From a virus (taxonomy: Duplodnaviria; Heunggongvirae; Uroviricota; Caudoviricetes), in IMG/VR virus record IMGVR_UViG_2534681675_000028: a stretch of 34,318 nt of DNA. The stretch is one strand, 5' to 3'. This document shows positions 6,417 to 20,002 of the stretch, piece by piece. Position numbers and translations under genes: made by a program. Position 1 is the first letter of the stretch, and every line of letters starts with the position of its first letter. Under the pieces are notes generated by a model that saw nothing but the letters and a program-made list of their open reading frames with translations, ran no database searches and was not told where the DNA came from.

Positions 6417-6993
6417 TATCGCGTCCTCAACAATGAATTTTGTGATGCGGTGCCTGGTGCCTCCAGGTGACGTTAACCAGTTAACAATTAACGCCGGATA
6501 CAGAGAATCCACCCATAACACTGTTTTTGGTTTTAACTGTTCCGCGTGCGCTGAGCCGCATTCACCGCATCACAAAATTCACTTTTAAAAAAGGGCGGCA
6601 GAGCAGTCACGGAGTAAAACTGATACCGCCAAATGTCACCAGAATATTGATAACAGAGGGCGTTGTAGCGGGGTTGTCACTTAAGCGTATGGTCAACCTG
6701 ACAACCCGGTGTCCTCAACGGGGAAAGGCGTCCCTCCCACCCCCGCCATACTTACCGCCGCGCCATTTCGCGGGTCGCCACAACCGGAAGCGCACGGTCG
6801 AATTAAATTTAACGACACCGTGCAGTGAGACGAACTTCGCCGTGCGCTTTCGTGTTGTGTGCCTGCTTTTAACCACGTCAGGCGAGGTGGTTTCCGTCAT
6901 TCCCCAACGACAGGAAATCTGTATAATCTGGGTATCCCCAACGATCCAAGGAAATCATATGACAGAGCAAAGAGCACAAGCAGGTGATGGTGT

Positions 6994-12585: not shown

Positions 12586-13276
12586 GTGACTGAATTAACC
12601 AAAGAGCAATTAATCGAAGAAGCCAAATTAAAAATAGCGATTGCGAAATGCCACCCCAATTCAGGGATGGCACGGGTAGAGGGCGAGTTATTCAAAATTG
12701 CACTGGCATCGCTGGTAGCAGAACCGCTGGTGCCCGTCATGTATAAAGGAATGAAACTGTTAACAAAAGAGGGGCTTGAGCTTATTCGTGACGGTATTGC
12801 GGAGGCTACGGGACTGGAAGCAATGTGTATGGCTGATGCTTTGCTGTCTGGGGGGGGGGGCAGTGCCGTCAGTGCCGAAAGAAATGTATTGGCAGGATGC
12901 ACCAGTTGAAAGTAGCAGCAAAGCAGCTGCATACGCTACAGGCTGGAAAGCCTGCCGCGAAGCCATGCTTCAGTCCGGAAACTTTCGGGATAATAAGAAT
13001 TCGTCAACCAACAATTTTCGGGAAATCCCGGAAACGTCAACCAGCTCTCAGGGAACTCCGGCTGGCTGGATAAGCTGTAGTGATGCAGTTCCTGCTGAAT
13101 ATTGCGATGTGATTCTGCGCGATGATCTCGGGAATGTATTCCCCGGTTCATGGGATAAGGTTTTTTGCCCCACTCGTGGCGGGAATAAGATGGCTTTTGT
13201 GGACAAAGACGGCGTCGAAGTAGAGAGCTCAACCCACTGGATGCCGCTACCAGAATCGCCGAAGGTGGTGAAGTGA
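12586..13276 (+). CDS. Ea22-like/DUF551-type protein split into two overlapping ORFs (12586-12909 and 12776-13276) at a G11 homopolymer
   Basis: Two ORFs in frames +1 apart meet at the G run 12850-12860; removing one G gives a single ORF (…LLSGGG|AVPSVPKEMYWQ…); C-terminus has the HWMPLPE motif I associate with DUF551. Confidence 0.5.
12850..12860. repeat. G11 homopolymer inside a coding region
   Basis: Direct reading: ctg followed by ten g. Confidence 0.9.
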
Positions 13277-13450
13277 TGGAAAATGAATTCGAAAATGCTA
13301 TCGCCACGGTGCAGCCAAAATCAATAGTTGAGTAGACTTACTCTGAGGCTTGACTACGAGGTTACCATTAGGTGTAATTTAGAGTAAGTTGGTAGCCTCA
13401 GTTGTCGAAGAGGCATAATGGTGATTGTTAGTTGATGCAATAATTAAGGA

Positions 13451-13942
13451 ATGTTAATGCCTACTAATGCTGAACAACCAGTATCAATTAGTAAACCGAA
13501 GACCGTTACACTTCGTGCTTTTGAAATAAAAAACACTGCACTTTCGAAAAGTTCTAGCGAAGCTAAGGCCGATTTGATAGCAAGGCTTAGTCAAGTAAAA
13601 CAGGCAAAAGATAGATGCATGTTGTTAAATCCAGAAGATCCTAAGCAGGAAAGAGATGTTCTTTCGTATTTTAAAGAATCTCCTGTTACTGATTCAGTAT
13701 TTTGCACTATGTTAAGGATTACATCTGACAAAGAAATCCAACACATAACAGATTCTCTTTTTGAGAAAGAGGTCTTTTCTCTGGATGATATAGAAACATC
13801 TCATTTAGATGTGTCAGCAATATGTAAAGGCCATTACTATTTTTGCATGAGTGATGATTTTTTAGTTACAAATCTCCCATTAAATAAAACGATTGTGCGT
13901 TTACAAACGTATCTGAGTTGGTTTACAAATAATGAGCTTTAA
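13451..13942 (+). CDS. Hypothetical protein, gene A of an AT-rich accessory cassette
   Basis: 163-aa ORF; markedly AT-rich relative to flanking phage genes; family not recognised. Confidence 0.5.
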   Translation: MLMPTNAEQPVSISKPKTVTLRAFEIKNTALSKSSSEAKADLIARLSQVKQAKDRCMLLNPEDPKQERDVLSYFKESPVTDSVFCTMLRITSDKEIQHITDSLFEKEVFSLDDIETSHLDVSAICKGHYYFCMSDDFLVTNLPLNKTIVRLQTYLSWFTNNEL

Positions 13943-13957
13943 GAATTCACCCCACTA

Positions 13958-14470
13958 GTGTCAGCAAAAGGGAAAACGAAACTTAGTGATTTAAAAGCCA
14001 TAATCGTTAAAGATCCAGAACCGTTAGTACCGACTGCTATGTGTGATGAGTCTGGTGTTAGAAGTAAAAAGGGAGAAATTACGGTTAGCGAAGGTCATAA
14101 ATCTATCAAGTTAACACAAAAAGTTCTGGATATTATCAGGAGTTCGATGTCAGACTCTGAACAACTTAATGATATGATGCTGAGTCAAATGATTTCTGCT
14201 GAATTGTTAATAAAATTTAAAAAGCCACGCAGAATGACAGATGATGAATATAGTAGAGCTTTAGGGGCTTATTTGAAACCCGTTAGCGATCTTGATAATG
14301 TATCATTTAAGCGAAAAGATAACAAAACAGAAGTGAAAGGCAAGGATTTGCTGTTAACAAAGTCTGTAAGTATTGAAACGACACAGTCAGGTAAATTAGT
14401 TGAGCATCATTTGCTACAAGAGATGAGCAAGTTTTTGCTAGAGTTAAGCAATGAAAAAAATAGCGGTTAG
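13958..14470 (+). CDS. Hypothetical protein, gene B of the cassette; same reading frame as gene A, separated by a single TAA; no evident Shine-Dalgarno
   Basis: 170-aa ORF; in-frame continuation after the TAA at 13940-13942 reads EFTPLVSAKGKTK…. Confidence 0.4.
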   Translation: MSAKGKTKLSDLKAIIVKDPEPLVPTAMCDESGVRSKKGEITVSEGHKSIKLTQKVLDIIRSSMSDSEQLNDMMLSQMISAELLIKFKKPRRMTDDEYSRALGAYLKPVSDLDNVSFKRKDNKTEVKGKDLLLTKSVSIETTQSGKLVEHHLLQEMSKFLLELSNEKNSG

Positions 14471-14912
14471 CGTATTATCAATATTGCTGCTCACATTGTT
14501 GGCTAGTTCAGTCTGGGATGTTCGTCCGGACGGTTTTTTTGCGTCGACAGTTTTTACAATTTCTGGAATAATGTTCTCAATTGGATTAGGGCTAATTGTG
14601 AATTTTAGCACATCCGGTGTAAGGAACCGTGGATACATTCTGCGTATTAGACGTAATGTAATGAGGGTGAGGAATTCATTTCTATTATATTTTGGTTTGT
14701 CGACTTTTTCTTACATAGCAAATCAATATCTTACTGCTTTTGAGTTTTCTTTAACCTTTGGTGATGGTATCAAAACATGTTTTAGCGCATCCATATTCTT
14801 TTGCTTGCTTATAATTTATTCCTCTATATATTTTGTTGTTAATTTTATAGAGTTGCAAAAACTCAATAATGATATTTTTGATAAAGTCAATGCGGAAATA
14901 ACTAACAAATGA
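14451..14912 (+). CDS. Small polytopic membrane protein (about 4 predicted transmembrane helices), gene C of the cassette
   Basis: 153-aa ORF overlapping the end of gene B by 20 nt; four long hydrophobic segments; AT-rich. Confidence 0.55.
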   Translation: MKKIAVSVLSILLLTLLASSVWDVRPDGFFASTVFTISGIMFSIGLGLIVNFSTSGVRNRGYILRIRRNVMRVRNSFLLYFGLSTFSYIANQYLTAFEFSLTFGDGIKTCFSASIFFCLLIIYSSIYFVVNFIELQKLNNDIFDKVNAEITNK

Positions 14913-15123
14913 AATGGCTTTTGTGTGCATGTTAAATAAAGAATACATGGCATCATTTAATGATGTCATGTGTAACGAGCGAAAAGCCTTTTGAACGGTT
15001 TTCATAAGTTATATTGAAAGATAAAATTGCTGCGGGTGCTTGAGGCTATCTGCCTCAGGCATGAACACCAACGGCAGATAGATAAAAGCCCCACCCGACT
15101 ATAAATCGAAGTGAGGCCCCTAT

Positions 15124-15336
15124 ATGCTCGTCACATACAGATTGCCTCTTACGGACCGAAAGGTCAAGGAGAAGCAGGCTATGAAGCAGCAAAAGGCGAT
15201 GCTAATCGCCCTGATCGTCATCTGTTTAACCGTCATAGTGACGGCACTGGTAACGAGGAAAGACCTCTGCGAGGTACGAATCCGAACCGGCCAGACGGAG
15301 GTCGCTGTCTTCACAGCTTACGAACCTGAGGAGTAA
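15124..15336 (+). CDS. mok: mok-like reading frame (N-terminally extended, in frame with hok)
   Basis: ORF in the same frame as hok sharing its stop codon, the arrangement I recall for chromosomal mok/hok pairs. Confidence 0.5.
   Translation: MLVTYRLPLTDRKVKEKQAMKQQKAMLIALIVICLTVIVTALVTRKDLCEVRIRTGQTEVAVFTAYEPEE
15181..15336 (+). CDS. hok: Hok/Gef-family type I toxin (51 aa)
   Basis: MKQQKAMLIALIVICLTVIVTALVTRKDLCEVRIRTGQTEVAVFTAYEPEE closely resembles Hok (…[25 protein letters not shown]…); AGGAG Shine-Dalgarno. Confidence 0.8.
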   Translation: MKQQKAMLIALIVICLTVIVTALVTRKDLCEVRIRTGQTEVAVFTAYEPEE

Positions 15337-15403
15337 GAGACCTGGCGGGGAGAATTCCCTCGCCACCTCTGATGTGTCAGGCTTCCTCAACGCACCCGCA
15401 CTT

Positions 15404-15430
15404 AACCCGCTTCGGTGGGTTTTGTTTTTT
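15404..15430 (+). terminator. Rho-independent terminator after hok
   Basis: Hairpin AACCCGC-TTCG-GTGGGTT followed by TTTGTTTTTT. Confidence 0.6.
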
Positions 15431-15502
15431 CTGTGCATTCTGGTTTACAATTCGCACGCCAGCCTGAACAACTGGCACCTGCTGCGCCAGCAGAGACAAC
15501 CG

Positions 15503-15781
15503 ATGGCGCACGATACCAAATTACACAATTCTGATGATTCTGCCGTCTTTGCCAGCAGGCACGGGCTGCGTTCTCACGCATTCAAATATGACTGGTATCA
15601 GCACGATCCCTGTACTGAAGAACAGGCCGAATGGCTGATTCATAACTACCGCAGACGTGGGTATGAGTTTAAGAAAGCCCTCAGTCTCGATTATCGTCAC
15701 TGGATAATCTACGTCAGGCTCCCTTATTCCGAACGCCCGCCGCGTCCATCCCGCACATTCCAGCAACGGATCTGGAGGTAA
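15503..15781 (+). CDS. Hypothetical nin-region protein
   Basis: ORF 15374-15781 trimmed to the ATG at 15503, because the upstream part overlaps the hok terminator. Confidence 0.4.
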   Translation: MAHDTKLHNSDDSAVFASRHGLRSHAFKYDWYQHDPCTEEQAEWLIHNYRRRGYEFKKALSLDYRHWIIYVRLPYSERPPRPSRTFQQRIWR

Positions 15782-15782
15782 C

Positions 15783-16832
15783 GTGCGGGTATTACTTCGA
15801 CCTGTTCCGGTGCCGGAACTCGGGCTGGTGGTCCTTAAGCCGGGCCGTGAATCTATGCAGGTATTTCATAATCCCCGGGTACTGGTGGAGCCGGAACCGA
15901 AAAGCATGCGCGGTCTGCCGTCCGGAGCTGTTCCTGCCGTTCGCCAGGCGCTGGCGGAAGATAAATCATTACTGCCATTTTTCAGCGATGAGCGGGTGAT
16001 TCGTGCTGCTGGCGGCGCTGGTGCACTGTCTGACTGGCTGTTGCGTCATGTCAAATCCTGCCAGTGGCCTCATGGTGACTATCATCACAGTGAAACCGTC
16101 ATACATCGTTACGGTACCGGCGCGATGGTGTTGTGCTGGCACTGCGACAACCAGTTGCGTGACCAGACCTCCGAATCACTCGGGCAACTTGCTCATCAAA
16201 ACCTGTCGGCATGGATGATTGACGTCATACGCCACGCAATGAATGGCACACAAGAGCGGGAATTATCGCTGGCTGAATTGTACTGCTGGGCTGCTGTAAA
16301 TGATGTAGTGGATGCCATGACCGAAAATATGGCGCGTCGAATCCTGAAGCGTCCGGGTGAAAAAATCCGCTCAATATACCGCGAGAGCGACATCATACCG
16401 GGAGAACCGACAGCCACCAGCATACTGAAGCAGCGCACAAAAAATATTGCGCTACCACCTTACGCCCACCAGCAACAGAACCCACCACAGGAAAAGACGG
16501 TGGTCAGCATCGCCGTTGATCCGGAGTCTCCTGAATCTTTCATGAAGCGACCTAAACGTCGCCGTTGGGTAAATGAGAAATATACGCGCTGGGTGAAGAC
16601 TCAGCCGTGTGCGTGTTGTGGTCAACCAGCCGACGATCCCCATCACCTGATTGGTCATGGTCAGGGCGGAATGGGAACAAAGGCCCACGATATTTTTACA
16701 CTACCGCTGTGCCGGGAGCATCACAACGAACTTCATGCGGATCTGCTGGCGTTCGAAGAAAACCATGGTTCCCAGATTGATTTAATTTTTCGTTTTCTTG
16801 ATCACGCCTTTGCAACCGGCGTGCTTGGGTAA
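15783..16832 (+). CDS. DUF968-type prophage protein with C-terminal HNH-like Cys/His motif (YdfU-like by recollection)
   Basis: 349-aa ORF; GTG start with GGAGG Shine-Dalgarno; C-terminal CACCGQ…HHLIGHGQGGMGTKAHD…CREHHNELH. Confidence 0.6.
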   Translation: MRVLLRPVPVPELGLVVLKPGRESMQVFHNPRVLVEPEPKSMRGLPSGAVPAVRQALAEDKSLLPFFSDERVIRAAGGAGALSDWLLRHVKSCQWPHGDYHHSETVIHRYGTGAMVLCWHCDNQLRDQTSESLGQLAHQNLSAWMIDVIRHAMNGTQERELSLAELYCWAAVNDVVDAMTENMARRILKRPGEKIRSIYRESDIIPGEPTATSILKQRTKNIALPPYAHQQQNPPQEKTVVSIAVDPESPESFMKRPKRRRWVNEKYTRWVKTQPCACCGQPADDPHHLIGHGQGGMGTKAHDIFTLPLCREHHNELHADLLAFEENHGSQIDLIFRFLDHAFATGVLG

Positions 16833-19848: not shown

Positions 19849-19924
<76 letters not shown>

Positions 19925-19927
19925 TAT

Positions 19928-20002
<75 letters not shown>

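Follow-up and report, generated by a model that had tools for sequence, protein, structure and literature searches.

A predicted intact hokD-type hok/mok/sok module in a lambdoid prophage of Escherichia coli

Introduction

Does the Hok-like gene in the nin-equivalent region of a lambdoid Escherichia coli prophage belong to a complete type I toxin-antitoxin (TA) module, and if so, where is its antisense RNA and what might it do for the phage? The question is raised by a stretch of 34,318 nt from a tailed phage (IMG/VR record IMGVR_UViG_2534681675_000028; the whole stretch is referred to here as the window), in which a sequence-only reading had placed a hok/mok module at 15090-15430, next to an AT-rich cassette. 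Our analysis indicates with high confidence that positions 14999-15431 of the window hold an intact hokD-type hok/mok/sok module. The hok/sok system is already known and common in E. coli lambda-like prophages, and this copy of it is complete and unremarkable; it is flanked by variable cargo on one side and by DUF968, rusA and Q on the other. The contents of the span first proposed were borne out and are not chance resemblances, whereas its start has to be moved upstream, to an mRNA 5′ end at ~15034 and a promoter at 14999-15027. Homology of phage genomes to the locus starts at ~15018-15030. Relatives were compared in 80 phage loci with a near-identical Hok (L005-L084), and upstream contents in 79 hok loci.

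The hok toxin gene

15181-15336, + strand: hok coding sequence, 51 amino acids (Pfam HOK_GEF; open reading frame (ORF) list)
15166-15171, + strand: hok Shine-Dalgarno (SD) sequence AAGGAG, overlapping the Sok -35 of the opposite strand (read from the sequence)
15319-15322, + strand: UACG, the TadA recognition motif, at the Tyr47 codon; candidate site of A-to-I editing that would turn Tyr into Cys (seen in the sequence)

The assignment of the toxin to the Hok family is well founded. The peptide, MKQQKAMLIALIVICLTVIVTALVTRKDLCEVRIRTGQTEVAVFTAYEPEE, scores 82.9 bits against Pfam PF01848 (HOK_GEF; cut-off 22, E 1.2e-23), matches PHROG 251 ('MokW-like host killing') and has the layout of the family, in which ~50 amino acids comprise a transmembrane helix at the N-terminus and a C-terminal part that is conserved. 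Moreover, it shares 100% amino acid identity with HokD (RelF) of E. coli K-12, with a single synonymous nucleotide difference in hok, and the identical HokD peptide has served as a toxic control (10.1101/2025.08.07.668861). The 51-amino-acid hok is intact in 79 of the 80 phage loci. In most computed folds its SD pairs with 15147-15150. A-to-I editing is reported for hokB and hokC/D/E in the literature as summarised in 10.1101/2025.08.07.668861.

The hok mRNA and its predicted folds

14999-15027, + strand: hok mRNA promoter, -35 TTTTCA at 14999-15004, 17-nt spacer, -10 TAAAAT at 15022-15027 (consensus scan, 9/12 match)
15034-15431, + strand: full-length mok-hok mRNA, ~397 nt (5′ end from the RF01794 start and R1-type homology, 3′ end from the terminator)
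15034-15045, + strand: tac element GGGUGCUUGAGG at the mRNA 5′ end, paired with fbi in the full-length minimum free energy (MFE) fold
15046-15081, + strand: 5′ leader hairpin, stems 15046-15054 and 15073-15081 (MFE fold; first helix of the RF01794 alignment)
15088-15097, + strand: ucb-like box GCCCCACCCG, paired in the full-length MFE fold with 15107-15117, which includes the GAGG of the mok SD
15344-15364, + strand: G+C-rich hairpin of the 3′ untranslated region (UTR), in all computed folds
15385-15397, + strand: fbi element CCUCAA(C)GCACCC, complementary to tac
15404-15431, + strand: intrinsic terminator, hairpin 15404-15421 with a 7-bp stem and 4-nt loop, then a T-run (terminator scan)

We infer that hok is transcribed from the promoter at 14999-15027, whose geometry (-10, 6 nt, G at +1) is the same in the R1-type locus L094 (-10 TATGAT) and in K-12 hokC (TATAAT). 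The mRNA 5′ end was placed by homology to the R1-type 5′ end, GGCGCUUGAGG. At the other end, the terminator scan recovered the hairpin that the sequence-only reading had described, followed by a T-run. The covariance-model search proposed by that reading gave a match of the hok leader (15034-15183, + strand) to Rfam RF01794 with 102.9 bits (gathering 59, E 1.7e-22), the last three bases of the match being the hok AUG. This family is named 'sok' but is built on the hok sense strand: on the annotated hokC/mokC/sokC locus of K-12 (L004) it hits the hokC/mokC sense strand, opposite the annotated sokC ncRNA. Therefore, the match marks the leader of a hok mRNA; it does not argue for an antisense transcript and must not be taken for an antisense gene on that strand.

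The MFE fold of 15034-15430 has -157.8 kcal/mol (z = -6.5 vs shuffles). In it the long-range 5′-3′ pairing typical of the family closes the full-length mRNA, by a tac/fbi duplex of 12 bp plus one bulged C with a dG of -21.5 kcal/mol. In folds truncated at 15384 or 15368, which lack fbi, tac finds its partner immediately downstream, in a pairing that resembles the metastable hairpin of the literature. Truncation at 15375 pairs tac with ucb (15086-15092) and partly frees the mok SD. Both the ucb/SD and the tac/ucb pairings thus occur in MFE folds, and as a matter of thermodynamic prediction the dominant one varies with the chosen 3′ end. Three conformations have been described for the R1 hok mRNA (PMC9841398), to which the folds computed for the window are predicted to correspond. 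On the R1 paradigm, the G+C-rich 3′ UTR hairpin might be where 3′ exonucleolytic processing halts.

The pairing elements are strongly conserved. The tac element is invariant in 78/80 phage loci and the ucb-like box is 100% conserved across alleles, whilst among close relatives tac/fbi vary only in the bulged base, which is C, T or A, and by a single change of G-C to G-U. With tac and fbi near-invariant, covariation within the 80 phage loci is uninformative and a comparison with the R1 type is needed. Against the intact R1-type locus L094 the two elements differ in a compensatory manner, with GGCGC/GCGCC in the R1 type and GGGUGC/GCACCC in the window. The other R1-type loci were set aside, L092 for a leader cut by IS150 and L093 and L095 for having no leader. 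Likewise, K-12 hokC, hokE and hokA were left out of the covariation analysis, as IS186 or IS150 is annotated beside or within these loci.

The mok reading frame

15113-15116, + strand: mok SD GAGG, 7 nt before the mok ATG (read from the sequence)
15124-15336, + strand: mok ORF, 70 amino acids, in frame with hok and with a common stop, giving a 19-amino-acid N-terminal extension of Hok (ORF list)

The in-frame mok extension claimed at the outset is present. From the ATG at 15124 the frame is open to the hok stop, with its own SD and reading through the hok initiation region as expected of a mok leader ORF, and the arrangement matches mokC/hokC of K-12. The exact 70-amino-acid Mok-Hok sequence is recorded on ~999 contigs, under the name 'Hok family toxin'.

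Across the phage relatives the mok SD and ATG are found in 80/80 loci, in all of which the frame stays open as far as the hok start. Between the two start codons the offset takes three values: 56 nt (39 loci), at which a UGA that overlaps the hok AUG (AUGA) terminates mok; 57 nt (28 loci), at which the two are in frame; and 58 nt (13 loci), which gives an overlapping frame of the R1 kind. The window has 57 nt, the same as K-12 hokC. In R1 the ATG of mok is at 116-118 and that of hok at 174-176, a 58-nt offset in the other frame (PMC9841398), and mokB of K-12 resembles R1 in offset and frame. On the sequences compared, therefore, an in-frame mok is not a trait of the family. That the mok start is always kept while its frame takes all three values fits the published view that translation of mok matters and not the Mok product; the three frames among near-identical alleles lend this view support from natural variation.

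One further ORF, from a GTG (15111-15329, 72 amino acids), was weighed as a mok of the R1 style but discarded, for want of an SD and of a Pfam match and because its frame is without a start in the majority short allele.

The antisense RNA

15132-15078, - strand: predicted Sok RNA, ~55 nt; transcription start site (TSS) at G15132, 7 nt after the -10, as in annotated SokC and SokB
15167-15139, - strand: putative Sok promoter, -35 TTGACC at 15167-15162, 17-nt spacer, -10 CAATCT at 15144-15139 (alignment to known Sok promoters)
R1 type: Sok promoter TTGCGC-17-TATCCT, aligning column for column with the window
K-12 hokB: Sok promoter TTGCCG-17-TAAGAT, aligning column for column with the window
K-12 hokC: Sok promoter TTGACC-17-CACTCT, aligning column for column with the window

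The sequence-only reading had expected a Sok RNA over the mok start on the minus strand, which is where we predict it (15132-15078), and had failed to locate its promoter. A consensus sigma-70 scan likewise found zero minus-strand promoters in the mok/hok region, because the -10 CAATCT is weak and falls below the threshold of the scan. Alignment to known Sok promoters nevertheless identifies a site at 15167-15139. Across it and up to the start, the minus strand reads CTCCTTGACC-TTTCGGTCCGTAAGAGG-CAATCT-GTATGT-G, and the 5′ end of annotated SokC is likewise 7 nt past its -10. Moreover, by mapping of published primers, the site aligns with the sokW promoter region of the Stx2 prophage Sp5, and mutation of the sokW promoter abolished antitoxin activity in Sp5 (PMC8621323).

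The predicted Sok consists of a 5′ tail, GACGAGCAUAUAGG, a hairpin and then GGGGCUUUUAUCUAU, with a UUUUAU tail, and is complementary to the mok SD and AUG (15111-15132), the target through which R1 Sok is established to act. The fold of 15132-15072, a segment of 61 nt that extends 6 nt past the predicted 3′ end, has -24.8 kcal/mol (z = -4.9). A cis-encoded Sok gene overlapping the mok start, with promoter, short hairpin RNA and U-tail, is thus predicted from the sequence.

The Sok body is also the part of the locus that varies. Between alleles, the hokW-like L083 included, 15094-15135 is only 25-34% identical, vs 82-100% for the remaining segments (5′ part of the leader, Sok promoter, coding sequence and most of the 3′ UTR). 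The Sok segment comes in at least three unrelated alleles, of which one contains an insertion of 21 nt. That of the window is the 'short' allele, common to more than 20 loci, in which a 1-nt deletion relative to the long allele changes the -10 from TAATCT to CAATCT. This hypervariable segment might give different Sok specificities to the copies of one genome, of which there are up to 10.

Relatives of the module

By megablast the locus is found in 4713/5426 complete E. coli genomes, of which 3501 carry it over 80% or more of its length, in a copy that PGAP annotates as hokD. The finding itself matters little: this is a textbook locus with a HokD-identical toxin, it is near full length in about two thirds of complete E. 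coli genomes, and a prophage cousin, hokW-sokW, is already characterised.

One close relative is hokD (relF) of the K-12 Qin prophage, which has the identical Hok peptide and the same 3′ UTR, fbi and terminator, and which also lies upstream of DUF968 (ydfU) and Q genes in a lambdoid prophage. However, its homology to the window begins only at 15167, with relBE upstream, and it is without the hok promoter, tac, ucb, mok start, Sok body and Sok -35, all of which the window has. Therefore, the window shows the locus in its complete form. K-12 hokD is a truncated derivative, and complete copies such as this one show what the intact form looks like.

The closest relative to have been tested is hokW-sokW of prophage Sp5 (E. 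coli O157:H7 Sakai), also a module of a lambdoid prophage and an experimentally shown type I TA system that is activated on induction (PMC8621323). Its 5′ end, as given by a published primer, is 49/50 identical to the window, with which it also has the -35 region, the hok SD and the N-terminal residues of Hok in common. It differs in having another allele of the Sok segment, within which the primers do not align with the window, in its -10 (GGCTAACC vs GGCAATCT in the window) and in the C-terminus of HokW (primer YO-369).

K-12 hokC/mokC/sokC (gef) resembles the window in its in-frame mok with a common stop and a 57-nt offset, its Sok promoter TTGACC-17-CAxTCT with the same TSS spacing, and the orientation of its RF01794 match; SokC, annotated as 59 nt, overlaps the mokC start as the predicted Sok of the window overlaps the mok start. 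In contrast to the window it is chromosomal and non-prophage, with IS186 ~20 nt past the hokC stop, and its Hok has 50 amino acids and several substitutions. Lastly, hok/mok/sok of plasmid R1 (parB) has the same architecture and regulatory logic, with tac/fbi, ucb, translation coupled to mok and a Sok encoded antisense in cis at the mok start (PMC9841398). Its mok is in the other frame, its leader has 173 nt vs 147 nt in the window, and its tac/fbi differ compensatorily; the leader of L094 also has 173 nt, agreeing with the published position of the R1 hok ATG (174-176). R1 Hok is divergent from that of the window, and has a published identity of 44% to the related HokW. Moreover, R1 is a plasmid locus with a role in post-segregational killing, whereas the window holds a prophage locus.

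A separate observation concerns the R1-type locus L093 on the Klebsiella virulence plasmid pSH12_Vir. It has the order relB-relE-hok, with RelB and RelE accessions identical to those of K-12 and an R1-like Hok, and like K-12 hokD its hok has no leader.

Function of the module

Several points weigh against reading the locus as an intact module that serves the phage. The Sok -10, CAATCT, agrees with the consensus at 2/6 positions, namely the key A and the T at its end. With mok in frame, translation from the mok ATG would give an extended Hok. In L001, the closest chromosomal relative (99.1% identity over 6.5 kb), an 11-nt insertion disrupts hok, and the module is therefore dispensable. Chromosomal hokA/B/C are reported to be without post-segregational killing, in work as cited by 10.1101/2025.08.07.668861. 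Finally, the Sok allele is sharply unlike sokW, and hokW results may therefore not transfer.

Could the locus then be a silent or decaying relic, with the look of hok/sok but no longer a working toxin-antitoxin pair, as proposed for several K-12 loci? The weak Sok -10, the frameshifted hok of L001, the failed killing tests of chromosomal loci and K-12 hokD without its leader, mok and Sok would all agree with this. However, all elements are intact in the window, and the 51-amino-acid hok (79/80) and the mok SD and ATG (80/80) persist in the phage relatives despite frame-changing indels, as do tac and fbi with variation limited to the bulge. Moreover, the -10 at this position in annotated sokC of K-12, CACTCT, is just as weak, and the related hokW-sokW is functional (PMC8621323). 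We consider a relic very improbable, and favour the intact module.

An intact module would work as follows, on the R1 paradigm (PMC9841398). The full-length mRNA of ~397 nt would be translationally closed, with tac/fbi and ucb/mok SD paired. Slow 3′ trimming would remove fbi, allowing tac to re-pair with ucb and the mok SD to open; ribosomes translating mok would then unfold the hok start, and the Hok made would depolarise the inner membrane. The short-lived Sok of ~55 nt would pair over the mok SD and AUG (15111-15132), blocking mok translation and inviting cleavage by RNase III, such that survival of the cell would depend on continued Sok transcription.

What such a module does for the phage is best approached through hokW-sokW. 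In Sp5, Sok is lost and HokW accumulates after RecA-dependent induction, with faster lysis, and phage release was doubled by the locus and halved by its deletion (PMC8621323). By analogy, the most likely role of the module in the window would be that of a lysis or induction helper. A terminator scan of 14850-15033, from the end of the cassette to the start of hok, found none, and hok is co-oriented with the early rightward operon. Therefore, read-through from this operon, colliding with Sok transcription, is in our own view a plausible trigger.

The other role to be weighed for a functional module is prophage addiction, i.e. killing on loss or excision, or abortive infection, instead of help in lysis. 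Plasmid hok/sok classically acts by post-segregational killing, and that of R1 gives partial exclusion of T4 (both as cited in PMC8621323 and PMC9841398), and hok is enriched in prophages, at 23% vs 5% expected (10.1101/2025.08.07.668861). On the other hand, the sole direct test in a lambdoid prophage gave faster lysis and 2x phage release and no stabilisation (PMC8621323), and the killing tests of chromosomal hok loci, in the work cited above, failed. We regard this role as rather unlikely and prefer that of a lysis helper.

The neighbouring cassette

13451-14470, + strand: cassette gene A, predicted RexA-fold DNA-binding protein, 337 amino acids when intact; outside hok/sok
14451-14912, + strand: cassette gene B, 153-amino-acid four-helix membrane protein, overlapping A by 20 nt; outside hok/sok (model, hydrophobic segments)

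Two membrane-directed functions in a row, which had been read as an accessory or defence islet of the nin region, is a fair description of the cassette and hok, although the modules are independent cargo. The slot is indeed variable and sometimes holds defence genes, and the cassette has the look of a RexAB-type system. The cassette and hok nevertheless move independently, which is the part of the islet idea that did not hold.

Among the 79 loci, the sequence of 1.5 kb that precedes hok forms 27 unrelated groups and is thus a cargo hotspot. Its contents include defence-type genes (BstA-like, PD-Lambda-2_C, Mrr-like nuclease, SIR2-like and C13-peptidase-like) as well as others (paa, a LysR regulator, QueH and relBE). 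One form of the islet idea is that hok/sok and the AT-rich cassette are co-selected as one unit, in which a RexB-like protein and Hok jointly depolarise the membrane against superinfecting phage. Although the neighbouring functions would suit this, the upstream contents are of 27 different kinds and include non-defence cargo (paa, LysR, QueH), and the cassette is carried by 3 of the 79 hok loci only, L001 and L008 being those that share it with the window. In Klebsiella the two genes, again overlapping by 20 nt, belong to a different prophage, where they run opposite in strand to their neighbours and lie two genes away from a superinfection-immunity gene, and none of the called genes of that prophage has a Hok/Gef Pfam match. 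Furthermore, gene A has a nonsense codon in the window and the relative in which it is intact has a broken hok, and hok is not enriched near defence systems (12% vs 9.4% expected; 10.1101/2025.08.07.668861). A co-selected islet is improbable; hok/sok and the cassette are independent cargo.

In the window, gene A is split by a TAA (13940-13942) into same-frame ORFs of 163 and 170 amino acids. The intact allele of E. coli OkiPb01695 (NZ_AP042570, 1171714-1172727, with the membrane-protein gene downstream) has TTA in place of this TAA and one annotated protein of 337 amino acids. Both alleles are common in E. coli, with the 170-amino-acid piece on at least 83 contigs and intact 337-amino-acid forms on ~70. 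In the relative with an intact gene A the 11-nt insertion that breaks hok lies at 15208, a reciprocal pattern. The cassette of the window is probably inactivated.

The cassette looks like an unnamed relative of the lambda RexAB exclusion system. With lambda RexAB and RexABpp of P. putida (PMC12894663) it shares a prophage-borne, AT-rich two-gene operon (GC of the cassette ~0.33). In RexAB-type systems the second protein is a four-helix membrane protein of ~150 amino acids; protein B is likewise predicted to be a small multi-pass membrane protein, with four long helices in its structure model (pLDDT 84) and hydrophobic segments that were confirmed. The cassette differs from RexAB in having no sequence similarity, in not adjoining the cI repressor and in the TAA that interrupts gene A. 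By hhalign, the probability was 0.1% for protein A against lambda RexA and 0.35% for protein B against RexB, which gives no support for sequence homology. The cassette proteins had zero matches in Pfam, PADLOC, PHROGs and NCBIfam, protein B had nothing significant in BFVD, and a megablast of 13000-16000 against phage genomes returned nothing for the cassette. Homologues of the 337-amino-acid protein (mostly 300-360 amino acids) and of the 153-amino-acid protein are found together from Salmonella to Photorhabdus and as far as Chryseobacterium, and every one is annotated as hypothetical.

This pair of a RexA-fold protein and a membrane protein, named by no defence database, is the more interesting lead. 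Tentatively, and with some doubt, we suggest that 13451-14912 is an unnamed, widespread RexAB-type abortive-infection pair (a RexA-fold sensor and a four-helix membrane effector, from Enterobacterales to Chryseobacterium), sitting in a cargo and defence hotspot of lambdoid phages of which hok/sok forms the fixed right border, and that the Sok segment of hok/sok is an exchangeable 'specificity' part by which several copies in one genome can coexist without cross-talk.

Other features of the prophage

Elsewhere in the window there is a full-length gene for the small RNA DicF (6593-6644, - strand; RF00039, 77 bits), which is typical of Qin/Kim-like lambdoid prophages. Moreover, two phage-borne tRNA genes, tRNA-Thr(TGT) at 19849-19924 and tRNA-Gly(TCC) at 19928-20002, lie on the + strand downstream of the Q antiterminator region.

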